Below are positions 1-54,960 of a stretch of DNA of 64,000 bases, in pieces. Position 1 is the stretch's first letter. Each line of letters begins with the position of its first letter. Location of the stretch: the NCBI GenBank assembly GCA_037134655.1, contig JBAXLR010000002.1:6888-70887 (forward strand). Direction: 5' to 3'. The DNA comes from a bacterium (lineage in GTDB: Bacteria; Bdellovibrionota_B; Oligoflexia; Oligoflexales; RGVZ01). The notes under the pieces are model-generated. The model did not search any database. It was given only the letters and a program-made list of their open reading frames with translations, and had not been told where the DNA came from. The position numbers were made by a program, and so were the translations under genes.

Positions 1-279
1 GAATTCTGTTGTTCGTTACAGCAGTCTCTTCTTGAGCAGGCGCGCCAGCGACTCGCGGGTGGTTCGATAAGTGAATCAAACCTTGAAACGATCAACTGCG
101 GAATTATTTCGATCATTGGAAGTGGCTTCTGGCAGAGTCCGGAGACGCTCGATACGGTGCGGAAAATTACTCCCGACGCATTATTTTTTGATGTTAAAAA
201 TTCTTGCCTTACGCTGGCAGTCAGTCCCGAAAAAGTTGAGCGAGTTGTGAAGTCACTTCATAACTCGCTAATCTCTTGA
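1..279 (+). CDS. 3' end of an ACT-domain enzyme, most likely aspartate kinase (partial, runs off window start)
   Basis: Frame 1 is open from base 1 to TGA at 277-279. The translation ...INCGIISIIGSGFWQSPETLDTVRKITPDALFFDVKNSCLTLAVSPEKVERVVKSLHNSLIS looks like the C-terminal ACT repeat of aspartokinases. It is absent from the ORF track because it has no start in the window. Confidence 0.5.
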   Translation, partial: EFCCSLQQSLLEQARQRLAGGSISESNLETINCGIISIIGSGFWQSPETLDTVRKITPDALFFDVKNSCLTLAVSPEKVERVVKSLHNSLIS

Positions 280-373
280 TCGTTAATCTTCTGGCTTTTT
301 ATTCAAGATTCATCAAGAATCCGACGCCAATGGTCGTTGCAGATCTTCCGGCCAAAATCGCTGGAGCAAATCC
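124..373. repeat. Left copy of a 250-bp direct repeat (partner 4076-4325)
   Basis: It aligns at a constant offset of 3952 with 12 mismatches and no gaps by manual alignment. It covers the last ~50 codons of the ACT-domain gene, the spacer, and on the minus strand the stop plus last 24 codons (299-373) of the OMP gene whose intact copy is at 4251-5084. Confidence 0.95.
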
Positions 374-382
374 TCTATAACA

Positions 383-410
383 GCACCCAGATCCCGACGT
401 GATGTCAGTG
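383..410. repeat. 28-bp perfect direct repeat, left copy (partner 3842-3869)
   Basis: gcacccagatcccgacgtgatgtcagtg occurs identically at both positions. This copy lies 9 bp inside the left 250-bp repeat boundary. Confidence 0.9.
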
Positions 411-875
411 GACTTGACTTTAAGTATTCGAGACCTACATCTGCTCGATCAGTGCTCATTCAGTCGGATGTCTCGTTTTACCGTTCCTGTGCAAGCGCAT
501 CGTAGGCAAATGGCATAGTATTTATGCGTCAAGTATAACACACCAAGATCAAACGGCAGTTTCGGCAGGTCGATATTTTTCCTGAGTTTCCTCGGGTCAG
601 TTGGGTAGAACGACATCTTGTCTGGAACGCTGTGCAGAGAAGATGTCCGAAAGGCACTGATTTTTTTCCTAGCGCCAAGATTTAATCTTTCATCACGCGT
701 CATCGGAGTTTATATGGCTAGTCTTAGTCCTGGCGATTGCCATCGTAATCAACGGAGTCTTCTTAGCGAGAATTTAAACCAAAGTTTTCTTTGGACCCAG
801 CCAAGGGTATACCCAGGGTGGCAGTCTTTTCTTGGGCCCACCAAAACATAGATAAATCGGTTTTATGCTGGTTGT

Positions 876-3407
876 TTAGCGCACTGGTGCTAAAGTCTCG
901 CGTCTAAACACAAGTGCTTTCAACAGCTCTGTTGTAAAAACGTATCCAACAACAATAAGTAACACGACGGCCATAAGATCGGCAGATAGCGGGACGAATC
1001 CCATAGCCCCAGCAAACGGCAAGTAAGGGATCGCCAGAGCAACGACGCCCACCGCGACCGTCAACTTTAATAACAGTCGTCCGGGTGAACTCTTATAGAC
1101 CGGTCTTCTCGTTCTGACCACCAACGCCACGACTAATTCTGTTAAAAGCGATTCCACGAACCATGTCGTTCTAAATTCTTGTGCTCCAGCGGAATAAAAC
1201 ACAATTAAAACACCAAAAATAACAAAATCAAAAAATGAGCTCACCAAACCAAATTCAATCATGAATCGCTTTATATAGCTCATATCCCATCGACCAGGTC
1301 CAGCGACTAATTCATCATCTACACTGTCTGCCGCAATCCCGATGGCAGGGATATCCGAAAGAAAATTGTTAAGCAAAACCTGCCCAGCCAACAACGGCAG
1401 AAACGGCAGAAATAGGGACGCCACCGCCATACTGATCATATTCCCCAAATTAGCACTCATGGTGATCAAAATGTATTTGAGGGTATTGGCAAATGTTTTT
1501 CGGCCCTGCTCTATGCCCTGCTTGATCACATCGAGGTCGCGCTCGAGCAACACAAAATCTGCAACATCACGAGCGACGTCTACGGCACTATCCACTGACA
1601 GACTGGTATCAGCTGCATGCATAGCGGGCGCATCATTTACACCATCGCCGAGAAAACCGACAACCGCCCCCATTTTTTTGAGAGATAAAATAATTCGTTC
1701 TTTTTGGTTTGGATCAACCTCCGCAAAGACGGTTGTGTCTATTGCGCTATGCCAGAGGGCCTCATCATGAAGCTCATCGAGGTCTTTACCCGTTAATGTT
1801 TTTTGAGCATCTAAGCCAACGGCACGTGCTACATTTTGAGCAACCGATTTCGAGTCGCCCGTTATAATCTTTATTCCAACACCAAGCTTTTCCAGGCTCT
1901 TGATCACATCAGCTACCCCAAGTTTCGGTCGGTCTAAAAATGTAAGAAAGCCTAGAAAACTCATCTCCTCCTCATCATCGCGAGTATAATTATCACCGAG
2001 AATCAATCGTTTGGTCGCTACCGCTAACACACGGATACCTCGCGATGACCATGCTTCATAGTTCTTCGTAATCTCGTCCCGATGTCCCTCCGTTATCACT
2101 GAACCGTCTCCTAACATCGTGCAGCTGGCCATTACGGTAGGAAAAGCTCCCTTTGTGATCAAAACCCGCTCACGACCACCACTCTCTATGATCACACTCA
2201 TCCGTTTCCGGATAAAGTCGTATGGAATTTCGGCAAATTTCACAGGAAGATGAACAGTGCCAACACGCGCGGCAATAGCTTCATCCAACGGATTTTTCAA
2301 GCCAGTTTGTAGCAAAGCATTGATAGCAGCCTGACTCAATACTGCTGTGCTTTCGACTCCATGCCAATCGTAAGCCCCAGAAAGCTCCACAACGCCTTCA
2401 GTTAAAGTTCCCGTCTTATCAGTGCACAGAACCGTCATGCTACCAAGATTTTCAATCGCATTGAGATTTCTAACAATCACGCCCTTTTTTGCCATCAGAT
2501 TTGCTGCCGTTGCCAAATTCACATTTAAAATAGCTGGTAATAATTCCGGGCTTAAGCCAACTGCAAGAGCAATAGAAAACAGTAACGACTCTATCATTGG
2601 CCTCTCAAGGATTAAATTCGCAATGAACACAATTAGGGTCATCGCCAGCATTGCTATCGTTAGAAAATCACCAAATTTTCTTATTCCGCGTTCAAATTCG
2701 GTTTCAGGAGCACGAAGTGATAGACGCTTAGCAATACCACCGTACTCCGACCTGGGGCCCGTACGAACAACAACGCAGGTACCTATTCCCGCCCTAACGT
2801 TAGTACCCATGAAAACACTGTTTAATCTCTTAGACAGTTCAACCTTCGGGGGTAAAACAGCAGGCTCTTTTTCAACCGGAAAACTCTCGCCTGTCATCAC
2901 GGCTTCATTTATAAACAAATCCTTCGCTGTTAAAACTCTTGCATCAGCCGGCACGAGACTTCCTGCCGACAGCACAAACACATCACCAGGCACTAACTCT
3001 CGCACATCAATAGAGATCTCCACCCCATCGCGAAGAACCCGCGCCTTAGTTTGCAGTCTATCTTTGAGCTGTCTAACAGCAACCTGAGCGCTGAATTCCC
3101 TTGAGTATCCAATACCGACGGATCCAGCTAATATCAGCATGATGATTGAAGAGTCGACCCATTCACCGCTAATCATGGACACCACTGCGGCGATTATAAG
3201 AATCCATAAAAGATGACTTTTAAGCTGGTTCCATAAAATCCTGCCCTTAGACAACCTAATCTCTTCTTTGACCTCATTACGACCATACTCTGAGATTCTC
3301 ATATTTGCTTCTGCCGTACTCAGCCCATGGAACGATGAGTCCAGCGAATGTATAAGCTCAGTTTCAGAAACACTCCAGAATTGATTTATAACGATTTTTG
3401 AACTCAT
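876..3407 (-). CDS. mgtA: Mg2+-transporting P-type ATPase (MgtA/MgtB-like, P3B)
   Basis: P-type motifs TGES, CTDKTGTLT and GDGVNDAPA are present. The TM4 motif PELLP resembles the MgtA PEMLP. The ORF track starts at GTG 3422, but ATG 3407 (MSSKIV) has a GGGGAG RBS 7 nt upstream. Confidence 0.85.
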   Translation of the reverse strand: MSSKIVINQFWSVSETELIHSLDSSFHGLSTAEANMRISEYGRNEVKEEIRLSKGRILWNQLKSHLLWILIIAAVVSMISGEWVDSSIIMLILAGSVGIGYSREFSAQVAVRQLKDRLQTKARVLRDGVEISIDVRELVPGDVFVLSAGSLVPADARVLTAKDLFINEAVMTGESFPVEKEPAVLPPKVELSKRLNSVFMGTNVRAGIGTCVVVRTGPRSEYGGIAKRLSLRAPETEFERGIRKFGDFLTIAMLAMTLIVFIANLILERPMIESLLFSIALAVGLSPELLPAILNVNLATAANLMAKKGVIVRNLNAIENLGSMTVLCTDKTGTLTEGVVELSGAYDWHGVESTAVLSQAAINALLQTGLKNPLDEAIAARVGTVHLPVKFAEIPYDFIRKRMSVIIESGGRERVLITKGAFPTVMASCTMLGDGSVITEGHRDEITKNYEAWSSRGIRVLAVATKRLILGDNYTRDDEEEMSFLGFLTFLDRPKLGVADVIKSLEKLGVGIKIITGDSKSVAQNVARAVGLDAQKTLTGKDLDELHDEALWHSAIDTTVFAEVDPNQKERIILSLKKMGAVVGFLGDGVNDAPAMHAADTSLSVDSAVDVARDVADFVLLERDLDVIKQGIEQGRKTFANTLKYILITMSANLGNMISMAVASLFLPFLPLLAGQVLLNNFLSDIPAIGIAADSVDDELVAGPGRWDMSYIKRFMIEFGLVSSFFDFVIFGVLIVFYSAGAQEFRTTWFVESLLTELVVALVVRTRRPVYKSSPGRLLLKLTVAVGVVALAIPYLPFAGAMGFVPLSADLMAVVLLIVVGYVFTTELLKALVFRRETLAPVR

Positions 3408-3520
3408 GTTACGGCTCCCCACCTCTGAGCTCCGTCTTACCTGAGTTGCAGATCGCCATCACTAGTTAATTTGAATGAGCACGCTCGCTGCGGATTAAAC
3501 TAAAAATCAATAAGGACGAT

Positions 3521-3910
3521 TTAACTCGCCCTTCCTTTGGAACTGCTTGGGTTGATGTAGCATCTTAGTTTCGCTTGTCTCTCCGCTCCCATTCGTAAGA
3601 CATTTGCCTTCAAATCCGCGTGGCGGGCAATTAATTCATTGAACTGGGTTTTGCTCAGCTTAAATACATCGCAATAGGTTGCTGCAGTTTCATCTGTTGT
3701 GCGCTTAAATTCACTAATTAGCGCCATTTCACCAAAAGAGGATCCTGGACCGAGAGCGGTTATGAATTGGTCGCCCATGTGTACGTTGATTGTACGGTGC
3801 CCTATCAGTAATATATTTTCTCCGATATGATATCTCAACCGGCACCCAGATCCCGACGTGATGTCAGTGCAAGGGTGGTGTAATGTACTCACCGGTGGTT
3901 TTCCTTGCAT
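3521..3910 (-). pseudogene. 5'-truncated cyclic-nucleotide-binding domain gene
   Basis: Only the C-terminal half of a cNMP-binding domain is recognisable (GSSFGEMALISEFKRTTDETAATYCDVFKLSKTQFNELI). Recognisable similarity stops at the 28-bp repeat (3842-3869), and the N-terminal 20 aa of the ORF look non-homologous. Confidence 0.55.
3842..3869. repeat. 28-bp perfect direct repeat, right copy
   Basis: Identical to 383-410. It lies inside the truncated cNMP-binding ORF. Confidence 0.9.
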
Positions 3911-4075
3911 GCCGGAGTCAAAGTTGAGTGCATAGACCGTGCAGGCTTAAGAAAGCTTTTTCATTACGGTGGCCGGTTAGCAGGGAATCGGTCGTTGCTG
4001 AGCTGATCCCAACCAGATGATCCAGGTCCTGCCAGGAAACGAACCTGCCCAGCACACGGTGAGCCTAACGACTCT

Positions 4076-4325
4076 GGCTTTTGGCAGAGTCCGGAGACGC
4101 TCGATACGGTGCGGAAAATTTCTCCCGACGCATTGTTTTTTGATGTTAAAAATTCTTGTCTGACGCTGGCAGTCAGTCCCGAAAAAGTTGAGCGAGTTGT
4201 GAAGTCACTTCACAGCTCGCTAATTTCTTGACCATTAATTTTCTGGCTTTTTATTCAAGATTCATCAAGAATCCGACGCCAATTGTCGTTGCAGATCTTC
4301 CGGCCAAAATCGCTGGAGCAAATCC
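4076..4325. repeat. Right copy of the 250-bp direct repeat
   Basis: See 124-373. This copy is contiguous with the intact OMP gene. Confidence 0.95.
4082..4231 (+). pseudogene. Start-less fragment duplicating the last ~50 codons of the ACT-domain gene
   Basis: It translates WQSPETLDTVRKISPDALFFDVKNSCLTLAVSPEKVERVVKSLHSSLIS*. The frame is closed by a TGA at 4004-4006 and has no ATG. Confidence 0.8.
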
Positions 4326-5084
4326 AGCTTCGACTTGAACCGCATCAAACTTATAACCTGCGGCGATAAGTCCGCGTCCGTGAACTCCAATGCCGGAATT
4401 GACCTCGTAACCCCAATCAGCCGATTTAGCTGCGCTGGCACTCCCATTTATGCTTGCCATCATATAGGCAAGGCCCAGACCCGCTTCGGTTCTCAAGACA
4501 AAATTGTCGCGTGAAAATAAGTTATAGGACAGGCCTGCGGTTGCTGCGAGTGCATTAGCTTTAAACTCTCCCACTTCGCTCTCGCCAAAAACAACCCTTG
4601 AGGTTCCACTGATCGTATAGATGCTTCCGCGAGCAAATCCATCAACTTGGCCTAAGAACCGGCTTCGTATAGCCTGTCCGCTGATTTCGTAGCCGGCTGA
4701 ATCTGCGCCTGCTCCAAAGGTTGTAAGACCCACGGAAGAGCCAATTAATAAATTCGCTGGACGACGATACGTTTTATATCTTTGCATTACTGGCGAGCTC
4801 CCGTCCAACATGGCGTAGGAGTCGGCTTGCGTGTCAACCTGACCCATAACTTGTTGAAGTTGAACCGAGCGTTTTGATCCATTCATTTTCGTGACTTTTC
4901 CAGTCGCAATAAGTTCGCCTCGATCAGTGAAAAAGCCAAGCTCATCACCTGAGACGATGCTTTTGTCGTTGACCACACAGACGTCATTACGAGGGCTGCA
5001 ATTAAATCCTCGTCCGAAGGCTGCGCTTGGCGCTAGGGCCAGAATGCAGGCATATTGAAGCATTTTTTTTGTACGAGTGTTCAT
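4251..5084 (-). CDS. Secreted protein, putative outer-membrane beta-barrel
   Basis: It has a signal peptide (MNTRTKKMLQYACILALAPSAAFG) and a Gly/Ser/Ala-rich alternating C-terminal half. An AAGGAG RBS lies upstream. I recognised no family. Confidence 0.6.
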   Translation of the reverse strand: MNTRTKKMLQYACILALAPSAAFGRGFNCSPRNDVCVVNDKSIVSGDELGFFTDRGELIATGKVTKMNGSKRSVQLQQVMGQVDTQADSYAMLDGSSPVMQRYKTYRRPANLLIGSSVGLTTFGAGADSAGYEISGQAIRSRFLGQVDGFARGSIYTISGTSRVVFGESEVGEFKANALAATAGLSYNLFSRDNFVLRTEAGLGLAYMMASINGSASAAKSADWGYEVNSGIGVHGRGLIAAGYKFDAVQVEAGFAPAILAGRSATTIGVGFLMNLE

Positions 5085-5112
5085 AGGGCATTCTCCTTAC
5101 GCCCCCTTTAAA

Positions 5113-5128
5113 AGCAAATGACATGCCA
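5113..5128 (-). promoter_or_regulatory. sigma54 (-24/-12) promoter candidate for the OMP gene
   Basis: The minus strand reads TGGCATGTCATTTGCT, against the consensus TGGCACG-N4-TTGCW with correct GG-N10-GC spacing. It lies ~30 nt upstream of ATG 5084, with AAGGAG in between. Confidence 0.45.
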
Positions 5129-5206
5129 AAGGAAAGGTTTGTAACTTCCTGTAATTTTTGCTCATTTTTTGGGCCTAGGTGTCAATAATTTTGACATTGT
5201 CCAGTT

Positions 5207-5854
5207 TTATTCCCAGTTGGGAAAACCGCCACCAGAAGCTAGGCCCACCATTGAGGTTTCCAGGTGGTCCATGAAAGCTCGGGAATTGCCATTCCAGAAA
5301 AGCTTATCACCGATGAGCACGTCACAAAAAAATGGAACCAACAAGGCCTCGCCTTTTGGTAGAGACTTACCAAGTCCATGTAGGAAGACGGGATAAACAG
5401 GAATCATGGGATATTTTTCTGCGATATAGGCAACCCCTGATTTGAATTTAGCCATTTTTTCTGGTTCGCCGCGACTACCTTCCGGGAATAGGATCAGAAT
5501 CTCGCCCCGGTCCAGTGCTTGAAAAACACCGCTTAGACGCTCGTCCAATGAAGCTCCATCAGCAGTACGCTTTAGTGGGATGATGCCCATTATCTCCCGT
5601 GAGAACCATGCCAGCAGCTTATTCTTGAGAAAATAATCGGCTGCCGCCACGGGGCGAATCTTTCGAAGCCTACTTAGTGGTAATAGGGTCATAAGTACGA
5701 CCGTATCAAGATGGCTATTGTGATTGGCGACAATAATCGCTGGCCCGTCTTGGGGTAGCTCTTTCTGTCTACGGACGTTCAATCCGATTACCACCAGAAT
5801 AATCGGTCTTACAATCAGGGCAAAAAAAATAAGTTGAATAAATCGGTTCATCAA
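5207..5854 (-). CDS. plsC: 1-acyl-sn-glycerol-3-phosphate acyltransferase
   Basis: It carries the HX4D motif NHNSHLD and the FPEGSRG motif, with an N-terminal TM segment. Confidence 0.8.
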   Translation of the reverse strand: MMNRFIQLIFFALIVRPIILVVIGLNVRRQKELPQDGPAIIVANHNSHLDTVVLMTLLPLSRLRKIRPVAAADYFLKNKLLAWFSREIMGIIPLKRTADGASLDERLSGVFQALDRGEILILFPEGSRGEPEKMAKFKSGVAYIAEKYPMIPVYPVFLHGLGKSLPKGEALLVPFFCDVLIGDKLFWNGNSRAFMDHLETSMVGLASGGGFPNWE

Positions 5855-53652: not shown

Positions 53653-54960
53653 TCAATCAGTGACTCCTTCATTCTCTTGATTTTTACGGACTCTTACGCG
53701 TTCTACCCTGTGCCGTACCACCTGTGACACTTCGCACACGAGAGGACCGATGGTTGTGCTCTGGCCAACTTTTGGCAGATCTCCTGTCACCTGAATCATG
53801 TATCCGGCTACGGTCTCGGCCTCTTGAAGGCCTTCGGCATGAATTTGTGCCGGCGTGATTTCAAAGAAGTCCAGGAATTCGTCTAAATTCATCTGCCCCA
53901 TGACATCGTATATTCCTGGGCTTATTTCGATGATTTTGGCCTGTTCTTCATCGTGCTCGTCTTGAATTTCCCCGACTATTTCCTCGAGCATGTCTTCAAG
54001 TGTAATGAGGCCAGCCGTCCCCCCGTATTCATCAATGACGATAGCCATGTGGGTTTTTGTTCTCTTAAGCTCTTTGAATACATCCATAATCAGTTTTGAT
54101 TCTGGCACTCGTCTTGGTTTTCGCATGAGATGCTGGATTTTTGTGATCTGCATTTTCTCAGGGTTTGCAGCAAATTGTAGCAGGTCTTTGGCCAGAAGGA
54201 TTCCGACTACGTTGTCAATCCTCTCGTCGTAGACGGGAATCCTCGCGTGGCCACTTTCGTAAGCAAGTTTCACGGCTGCATGTAGAGGAGTCTTTAATTC
54301 AATAGCCGTCATGTCAGTCCGTGGTGTCATGATCTCGCGTACTTTGATTTCGTCAAATTCAAACACGCCAGAGATCATATCTTGCTTGGTTTCCTCGAAA
54401 ACGCCTGCTTTTTCTCCGACATTCACCAGAAATTCAAGCTCCTCTTCAGTAATCTGAGGGCCGGGTTGGTGTTTGCCGCCACCAAATAACTCAATCATAG
54501 TTGATGCCAGGTAGCTTAGTCCAATGACTAGCGGCATGGTGCCTCGGTAACAAAAATACACAAACTTCATGGCAGGAACGGCCAGGGCTTCCCCGTAAAT
54601 TTTGCCAATAGTTTTGGGAAGGATCTCGGAAAATATCAAAATGACAAGCGTCGTGAAACCTGTGGCGATCGCAAGAGCGCGATCCTGGAAATACTTATTG
54701 GCATATTCCGTCGCAATAGCTGATGCAAGGATATTTACGGCCGTATTGAATAATAGAATTGTCGAAAGCACACGACTTGGATGATGAAGCCAAAGATTAA
54801 GTTCTTTTGCTTTTTCTCCGCGCGTATCGAGCAAGTGCTTTGCCTTCAGTGAGCCTAAGCCGGTTATTGCGGTCTCTGAACCCGAGAAAAGAGCAGATAT
54901 GATCCCGCAGGCTATGAATCCGACAATCGCAGTTGTGTCGTTAGCAAAAAATTCGTCCAT
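53653..54960 (-). CDS. DUF21-CBS-CorC_HlyC membrane protein (CorC/TlyC hemolysin-like)
   Basis: It has N-terminal TM helices, tandem CBS domains (REIMTPRTDM..., VPVYDERIDNVVGIL) and a C-terminal transporter-associated domain. Confidence 0.85.
   Translation of the reverse strand: MDEFFANDTTAIVGFIACGIISALFSGSETAITGLGSLKAKHLLDTRGEKAKELNLWLHHPSRVLSTILLFNTAVNILASAIATEYANKYFQDRALAIATGFTTLVILIFSEILPKTIGKIYGEALAVPAMKFVYFCYRGTMPLVIGLSYLASTMIELFGGGKHQPGPQITEEELEFLVNVGEKAGVFEETKQDMISGVFEFDEIKVREIMTPRTDMTAIELKTPLHAAVKLAYESGHARIPVYDERIDNVVGILLAKDLLQFAANPEKMQITKIQHLMRKPRRVPESKLIMDVFKELKRTKTHMAIVIDEYGGTAGLITLEDMLEEIVGEIQDEHDEEQAKIIEISPGIYDVMGQMNLDEFLDFFEITPAQIHAEGLQEAETVAGYMIQVTGDLPKVGQSTTIGPLVCEVSQVVRHRVERVRVRKNQENEGVTD

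Follow-up and report, generated by a model that had tools for sequence, protein, structure and literature searches.

An insert of about 3.7 kb, which carries an intact mgtA-type gene, separates two convergent genes of an uncultured freshwater Oligoflexales bacterium, an aspartate kinase gene and a gene for a secreted protein of 277 residues, and is bracketed by a 251-bp direct repeat of the very junction that it interrupts. Coordinates count along the whole 64-kb stretch of DNA that was analysed (the window); the repeat is called R, and R_L and R_R are its left and right copies. Related loci carry R once and lack the insert, several strains share the filled arrangement, and no mobility gene accompanies it. 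The most likely route, to which we assign a probability of about one half, is a single crossover between the chromosome and a circle carrying one copy of R. The flanking features, from left to right, are:

1-279, plus strand: 3' end (ACT-domain tail) of the aspartate kinase gene; the frame is open from base 1, the stop lies at 277-279 and the start upstream of the window.
123-373, no strand: R_L, with the last 51 aspartokinase codons and stop, a 19-nt spacer and the displaced 24-codon tail of the downstream gene.
299-373, minus strand: displaced, non-functional 3' fragment of the 277-residue 'OMP' gene, 24 codons and a stop.
4075-4325, no strand: R_R, with a stub of the aspartokinase gene (4075-4231), the spacer and the 24 codons that serve as the working end of the 'OMP' gene.
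4251-5084, minus strand: intact gene of the 277-residue secreted protein (the 'OMP' of the first-pass annotation), its 3' end inside R_R.

The two copies of R (123-373 and 4075-4325) align without gaps over 251 nt at 95% identity, and the homology breaks off abruptly at both edges. By MAFFT alignment and direct count they differ at 12 sites, left-copy positions 129, 169, 183, 207, 210, 261, 263, 273, 280, 282, 288 and 332; the first-pass annotation had seen the same gapless repeat with the same number of mismatches at 124-373 and 4076-4325, one nucleotide short of its true length (251, not 250). R_L is in frame with the aspartate kinase gene that enters the window at base 1, and the translation of 299-373, GFAPAILAGRSATTIGVGFLMNLE followed by a stop, is the same as the tail of the intact 277-residue gene. 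R_R in turn completes that gene, and its 51-codon aspartokinase stub has an in-frame stop ahead of it and no ATG. The earlier description, of a left copy that ends an intact ACT-domain gene and holds the last 24 codons of its neighbor and a right copy that completes the neighbor and holds a start-less ACT fragment, is thus confirmed on both sides. Its gene labels stand in part: the ACT-domain gene is an aspartate kinase (in the sister strain J the full-length protein has 404 residues, contains PF00696 and scores 303 bits against TIGR00657, cutoff 209), whereas the 277-residue protein, whose gene adjoins the aspartokinase gene in all relatives, has a signal-peptide-like N-terminus and matched nothing in family and domain profile searches, so that 'OMP' is not a verifiable label.

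That the interior is an insertion which duplicated the convergent-gene junction, as had been proposed, is borne out by the synteny of this junction in ten related loci. In the closest of them (L003, an Oligoflexales metagenome-assembled genome from Lake Mendota, 92.9% identical to the window over 9.5 kb) the aspartokinase tail leads through a single R into the 277-residue gene. The nine remoter empty-site loci (L004-L007, L011, L012 and L016-L018), in which the identity of the 'OMP' protein falls from 82% to 56%, likewise show the tail-to-tail pair, and their 6-10 kb of flank are free of mgtA; taken together, the ten span a range from about 93% DNA identity to 43% protein identity. A metagenome scan with the aspartokinase tail returned at least two distant loci. 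R is single in all ten, some 20-45 nt separate the two stop codons, and the uninterrupted site is thereby documented at four levels of relatedness.

That the duplication is an assembly artefact, an objection raised at the outset, can be dismissed: four or more samples, assembled independently, yield the filled structure, and each R copy has variants peculiar to a strain. The source samples are SRR12676975 and JGI 3300071635, 3300071636 and 3300045729. For the window strain itself, the Logan contig L001 (SRR12676975) is 100% identical over 130-4111. Strain J, represented by two Joint Genome Institute (JGI) contigs of 135 kb and 104 kb (L013 and L014), is 98.74% identical over 13.8 kb and has the same junctions, with both copies of R and both copies (S1 and S2) of a shorter nested repeat, S. 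The contig of strain K (L020), from a fourth sample, is 97.6% identical over 2740-4170 and shows the same three junctions, which join a truncated cyclic-nucleotide-binding gene (cNMP') to S2, S2 to an orphan stretch (X), and X to R_R. It is therefore extremely improbable that a free circle was threaded by assembly into an empty-site chromosome, or that the filled state is ancestral and was lost in the relatives by deletion between the R copies. The first of these ideas draws on the length of L001, whose 3,982 nt equal one repeat period (3,952) plus k-1 (30) and whose overlapping ends make it a closed cycle in the k=31 graph; but any direct repeat yields such a self-closing de Bruijn cycle, for which reason we discarded this length as uninformative about a free circle, and the 135-kb and 104-kb contigs, from two other samples, and the third strain carry the same junctions with variants of their own. 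Against the second stand the empty state of 10/10 relatives at four divergence depths and the two stubs, truncated duplicates that are explicable by insertion alone. The acquisition is fairly old: the insertion probably happened a single time, later than the divergence from the 93% relative but ahead of that of the three strains.

As judged from its similarities and composition, the inserted DNA is foreign. Among 5.8 billion proteins searched for homologues of the MgtA and cNMP proteins, the best non-self MgtA is 71% identical, and the closest relatives of both (71% and 66% for MgtA, 71% for cNMP') lie in unrelated gene neighborhoods. The contrast in composition that the first-pass annotation had proposed to measure is mild: GC content equals that of the flanks, while tetranucleotide usage is shifted (distance z of about 2.4; among 112 background windows, only 3 deviate as much from the average of the window), as is codon usage, for which the relative synonymous codon usage distance of mgtA is 0.30 vs 0.18-0.23 for genes of similar length. 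We also considered a tandem duplication and deletion of a native distal mgtA locus and rejected it, since the window holds no second copy of mgtA and the 5.8 billion proteins include no full-length cNMP gene product above 71% identity. The insert, the 10 kb on either side and the 64-kb window, which otherwise consists of core housekeeping DNA, contain no integrase, transposase or other mobility gene, and the insert has no Pfam mobility domain; the first-pass annotation had likewise seen no integrase or transposase. The interior features other than the two copies of S are:

413-875, no strand: Y, an orphan stretch downstream of mgtA that looks non-coding, with no Pfam match among its open reading frames.
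876-3407, minus strand: intact gene for an mgtA-type Mg2+-translocating P-type ATPase of 843 residues (TIGR01524 and Pfam).
3408-3520, minus strand: spacer between cNMP' and mgtA, with a terminator-like hairpin (3533-3512) that is a consensus match only.
3521-3832, minus strand: cNMP', 3' fragment of a cyclic-nucleotide-binding (channel-type) gene, matching PF00027 profile positions 36-89 only.
3872-4074, no strand: X, an orphan 203-nt filler between S2 and R_R, with stops in all six frames.

The two genes are those named in the first-pass annotation, an mgtA-like gene and a 5'-truncated cNMP-binding gene. The ATPase scores 706 bits against TIGR01524 (cutoff 611), which matches residues 13-836 of its 843, and has the full set of five Pfam domains (N-terminal, E1-E2, hydrolase, Cation_ATPase and C-terminal); it is predicted to be an MgtA-type magnesium-import pump. 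Ahead of it, no Mg-sensing leader or riboswitch was found by Rfam in 1-5300. The closest relative of cNMP', P0123 (71% identical; JGI name, voltage-gated K+ channel), aligns only from residue 28 of the open reading frame and has 97 further residues upstream, so that the gene is cut inside its domain, at 3832/3833. Neither orphan has a recognizable source: Y showed no similarity in the window, the related loci, viral contigs or plasmids, and X none in the window, the fetched loci, viral contigs or plasmids. A promoter-like site at the S2/cNMP' junction (3838-3810) was discarded as a mere consensus match, destroyed in strain K, and we attach no claim to it.

How this patchwork arrived is best approached through the two genes that it separates. 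A plain insertion anywhere in the 251-bp stretch outside the 19-nt spacer would truncate one of them; only a duplication of the stretch leaves both whole, which would explain, by selection, why the insertion persisted in duplicated form. The route that we favor provides such a duplication in one step. A foreign patchwork of about 3.7 kb, combining the intact mgtA with one third (the 3' end) of a cyclic-nucleotide-binding channel gene and with some 0.7 kb of orphan DNA, would have entered the chromosome once, in the ancestor of at least three strains of one Oligoflexales species, landing between the convergent aspartate kinase and 277-residue genes. It would have come as circular, non-replicating DNA with a single R, and one reciprocal crossover with the chromosomal R, catalysed by the host's RecA or in trans by a site-specific recombinase, would have left the 251-bp stretch on each side, both genes whole and one dead stub in each repeat; later, the redundant halves would decay in place, and the copies would convert each other now and then. 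The layout is the one expected of such a crossover: the R copies represent one contiguous chromosomal segment, and each continues into its own native flank. The Campbell-type integration suggested in the first-pass annotation therefore fits the layout, although sequence by itself cannot show it.

Several points weigh against a crossover with a circle. No circle, donor or recombinase was observed. The circle would first have to gain a 251-bp patch of host DNA through illegitimate joins, R to S1 and X to R, neither of which has microhomology, and the nested 39-nt S is not predicted by a simple one-step event. Further, R_L of the window strain is entirely of the resident type and R_R entirely of the derived type; a RecA crossover could have left this split only by falling within the final 41 nt of R, for which the chance is about 16%, unless every one of the differences is of later date. 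Finally, three-taxon and outgroup polarisations of the R alleles conflict (2 sites vs 2), and so point to no single state of the copies when the event took place.

The alleles of strain K show that some of the differences did arise later. In the window strain and J alike, R_R and R_L disagree at eight sites, and R_L has the L003 base at 8/8; in strain K, R_R keeps the ancestral base at 162 and 169, which indicates that at least part of the divergence of R_R arose in place. The base 162G is shared by all four copies of the window strain and J but missing from K, 246T is confined to the two window copies, and R_L of J is a mosaic that has R_R bases from position 273 onwards; together, these three patterns reveal gene conversion between the R copies, which blurs any allele mosaic around a single crossover point. 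The outgroups are too distant to polarise the rest, with two sites supporting each topology. On whether R_R was already diverged at arrival the alleles speak in both directions, as 7-8 of its differences are common to the window strain and J, some of them are lacking in K, and the polarisation is conflicting. Divergence from L003 amounts to 8-13 differences per 250 nt at R_R and in the gene to its right, and to about 20 further right; it is thus not raised at or right of R_R, and no donor tract is visible. For this reason, and given the stepwise accumulation of changes in K, a non-identical donor for R_R finds no support. The first-pass annotation had read the roughly 5% divergence of the copies as a non-identical donor or an old event; the alleles of K and J favor the old event, with decay in situ and gene conversion, and leave the donor unsupported.

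The same evidence bears on a second source of long repeats, a decayed element of the e14/phage-21 type. This would have targeted the 3' end of the 277-residue gene, brought R_R as its replacement end, lost its integrase and most other genes, and left mgtA and scraps. The geometry is as in e14, with the element-side copy completing the gene and the stub displaced to the other end of the insert; with its R_L of resident type at 8/8 marker sites and its derived R_R, the window strain displays just what would follow from a crossover fixed at R's right edge; and the truncated gene and the orphan stretches have the look of scars left by deletions. Yet the insert and its flanks out to 10 kb contain no integrase, excisionase, phage gene or gene of integrative and conjugative elements (ICE), strain K shows that at least part of the R_R divergence postdates the insertion, and R reaches 156 nt into the aspartokinase gene, beyond what restoring the target gene would need. 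We regard this origin as unlikely.

Divergence within the filled strains and along the locus is uneven. Between the window strain and J there are 6 differences in about 3,660 interior positions vs 1.26% overall, divergence being patchy everywhere, and between the window strain and K it is 1.2% in mgtA and about 4.5% in cNMP'. K further differs from the window by 17 substitutions and one indel in the approximately 92 nt of 3802-3893 (the end of cNMP', S2 and the beginning of X), which makes this a hypervariable spot or a locally converted one. Relative to L003, the aspartokinase tail, R and the 277-residue gene (4075-5075) are 3-5% diverged and the genes further right 7-12%; the low values may reflect recent gene flow between the two species. 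The last aspartokinase codons of both R copies contain a 14-pair hairpin (239-269 and 4191-4221) with T-runs on both strands, probably a shared bidirectional terminator of the convergent genes; the R mismatches at 261 and 263 lie in its stem.

Inside the insert lies a second direct repeat, S, which the first-pass annotation, while it found R, had overlooked and which marks two further illegitimate junctions:

374-412, no strand: S1, first copy of the nested 39-nt direct repeat, starting exactly at the end of R_L.
3833-3871, no strand: S2, second copy, starting exactly at the truncation point of cNMP'.

In the window strain S is recognizable over 37 nt with an identical core of 27-28 nt (27-nt core at 384-410), where none would be expected by chance, and occurs in two copies in the 64 kb. 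In strain J, S1 and S2 match at 37/39 nt (2 mismatches), and S2 of strain K is one base away from S1 of strain J within the variable first 10 nt, from which we infer that the two copies of S were once identical over 39 nt or more. Both copies sit at illegitimate junctions. S is absent from L003 and all other empty-site loci, so that it was not a pre-existing att- or dif-like site of the kind used by Xer-dependent integrative mobile elements (IMEX), and it had no match in viral contigs, plasmids or the fetched loci. It also bears no apparent resemblance to the proteobacterial dif consensus. Two structural roles were examined and discarded: a hairpin or single-strand nick site, as the DNA fold has a z of about 0 on both strands, and a terminal inverted repeat, as there is no inverted copy anywhere and the insert ends give inverted scores no higher than the shuffle level. 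A partial dyad (10-7-10, with 7/10 matches) is weakly unusual and was spotted post hoc.

The junctions of R_L with S1, of cNMP' with S2 and of X with R_R are all without microhomology, and the insert is a patchwork that implies three or four illegitimate joins in 3.9 kb. Both features would be natural if the locus had formed by end joining in one step, that is, if 251-nt staggered ends (or two nearby nicks) had been filled in and linear foreign fragments ligated between them by capture of the non-homologous end joining (NHEJ) type, producing in effect a very long target-site duplication; the nested 39-nt duplication would then look like the trace of another such event, with a stagger of another length. 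Bacterial NHEJ can indeed capture heterologous DNA at breaks (PMC6379672). Nevertheless, S1 starts exactly at the older junction, an improbable coincidence for independent events, and the 64-kb window, a part of the genome, contains no Ku or LigD gene. A stagger as long as 251 nt is, moreover, not known as an outcome in bacteria. Taking both sides together, we judge end joining unlikely.

Template switching, resembling microhomology-mediated break-induced replication (MMBIR) or fork stalling and template switching (FoSTeS), would derive both repeats from one event: a nascent strand leaves at 373, copies the 39 nt of S and the cargo from a foreign template, and re-enters 251 nt behind, yielding the flanking duplication together with a short templated S1 copied from 3.46 kb away. 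The microhomology usual for such switches is seen at no junction, however, and the join between cNMP' and S2 is itself illegitimate, so that S2 is not simply native donor sequence; this route seems very unlikely. Only a little less doubtful is the idea that S was a fixed DNA end or recombination site used twice, either in two nested integrations of mobility-gene-free circles (with patches of 251 bp and 39 bp) or in an over-length rolling-circle capture; the stretch from the start of S1 to the end of S2 (374-3871) amounts to 1.011 turns of a 3,459-bp circle. If true, it would speak for a cassette route by which these bacteria gain genes repeatedly and without an integrase. Of all parts of the locus, S is the one for which neither a simple crossover with a circle nor any of its rivals gives a clean account.

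Some further observations concern the cargo and the loci compared. In mgtA, the window strain differs from J by 4 non-synonymous and 1 synonymous changes and from K (5' 668 nt) by 4 of each, against 2 non-synonymous and 8 synonymous changes in the 277-residue gene; mgtA looks weakly constrained, and the pump may be dispensable or still adapting. The window that holds this acquired Mg2+ importer also encodes, on the minus strand at 53653-54960, a CNNM/CorC-type transporter (CNNM, CBS and CorC_HlyC domains), of a family linked to Mg2+/Co2+ efflux. About 600 nt upstream of the closest MgtA relative (71%) lies a gene for a 387-residue protein with an HTH_29 domain (L009, 213-1376); such domains are often found in IS630-type transposases, which hints that this mgtA lineage travels near mobile DNA elsewhere. 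Among the empty-site loci, L004 (CAYOEM010000001.1, a 433-kb contig) is titled 'uncultured Polynucleobacter sp.' yet has the same gene order and about 69% DNA identity over kilobases; its label or binning looks wrong. Some 10 kb left of the window start, a gene for a Lactamase_B protein (L013, 16370-17155) also matches the anti-Pycsar Apyc1 family PF23023, and occupies the same position in empty-site relatives.

The gain of a gene with no visible mobility gene is, at this locus, real, tidy and precedented. It offers a clean natural case in which empty and filled alleles are both sampled in wild populations, and in which the duplication of a shared 3' junction keeps two essential-looking convergent genes whole; at the same time, it leaves 251-bp repeats through which the insert can be lost and between which conversion can take place. 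Loci of this kind are readily mistaken for assembly errors, or missed by island finders keyed to integrases. The wider importance is modest, unless the nested S marks a recurrent mechanism.

Transposition leaves short duplications of fixed length (a few bp to about 15 bp), as compared to 251 bp here, and the insert has neither a transposase domain nor terminal inverted repeats. The argument in the first-pass annotation, that 250 bp exceeds any transposase target-site duplication, does not extend to site-specific elements: in E. coli MG1655 we measured the repeat flanking e14 at the 3' end of icd as 216 nt with 87% identity, and a long flanking repeat is thus no evidence against site-specific integration. 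As with e14 and phage 21 in icd, the present insert is framed by a long, slightly diverged direct repeat of a target gene's 3' end (251 nt, 95%), and R_R completes the 277-residue gene while R_L holds the 24-codon stub, just as the icd 3' end in the prophage completes the intact gene and the displaced stub, icdC, lies at the far end. Recombination between the flanking copies can delete e14 (PMC13626634). In contrast to the present insert, e14 measures 15 kb and has its own integrase and excisionase; no element-encoded tyrosine or serine recombinase is found in the insert, the 10 kb on either side or the 64-kb window, and the present repeat covers the ends of both convergent genes, with one transporter gene and scraps as cargo.

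Homology-facilitated illegitimate recombination (HFIR), through which foreign DNA is gained in natural transformation (PMC3240628, PMC3410848), resembles the locus in needing no mobility genes and in its illegitimate joins with little or no microhomology. It uses one homologous anchor, however, and normally replaces or deletes target DNA instead of duplicating it. The earlier statement that it would leave the same layout does not hold, as classical HFIR alone gives no duplication and there is no donor-like tract rightward of R_R. The NHEJ capture of heterologous DNA at double-strand breaks described for Sinorhizobium meliloti (PMC6379672) shares the blunt joins without microhomology and the patchwork insert, but no long flanking duplication has been described for that process.

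Campbell-type integration is familiar from suicide-plasmid insertion-duplication, specialised transducing phages and F-primes. It has the order seen here, target, R, insert, R and target, with each copy attached to its native flank, and host recombination suffices for it; what sets the Oligoflexales locus apart from the laboratory cases is that it records a natural event, fixed in several strains, and carries a nested 39-nt repeat.

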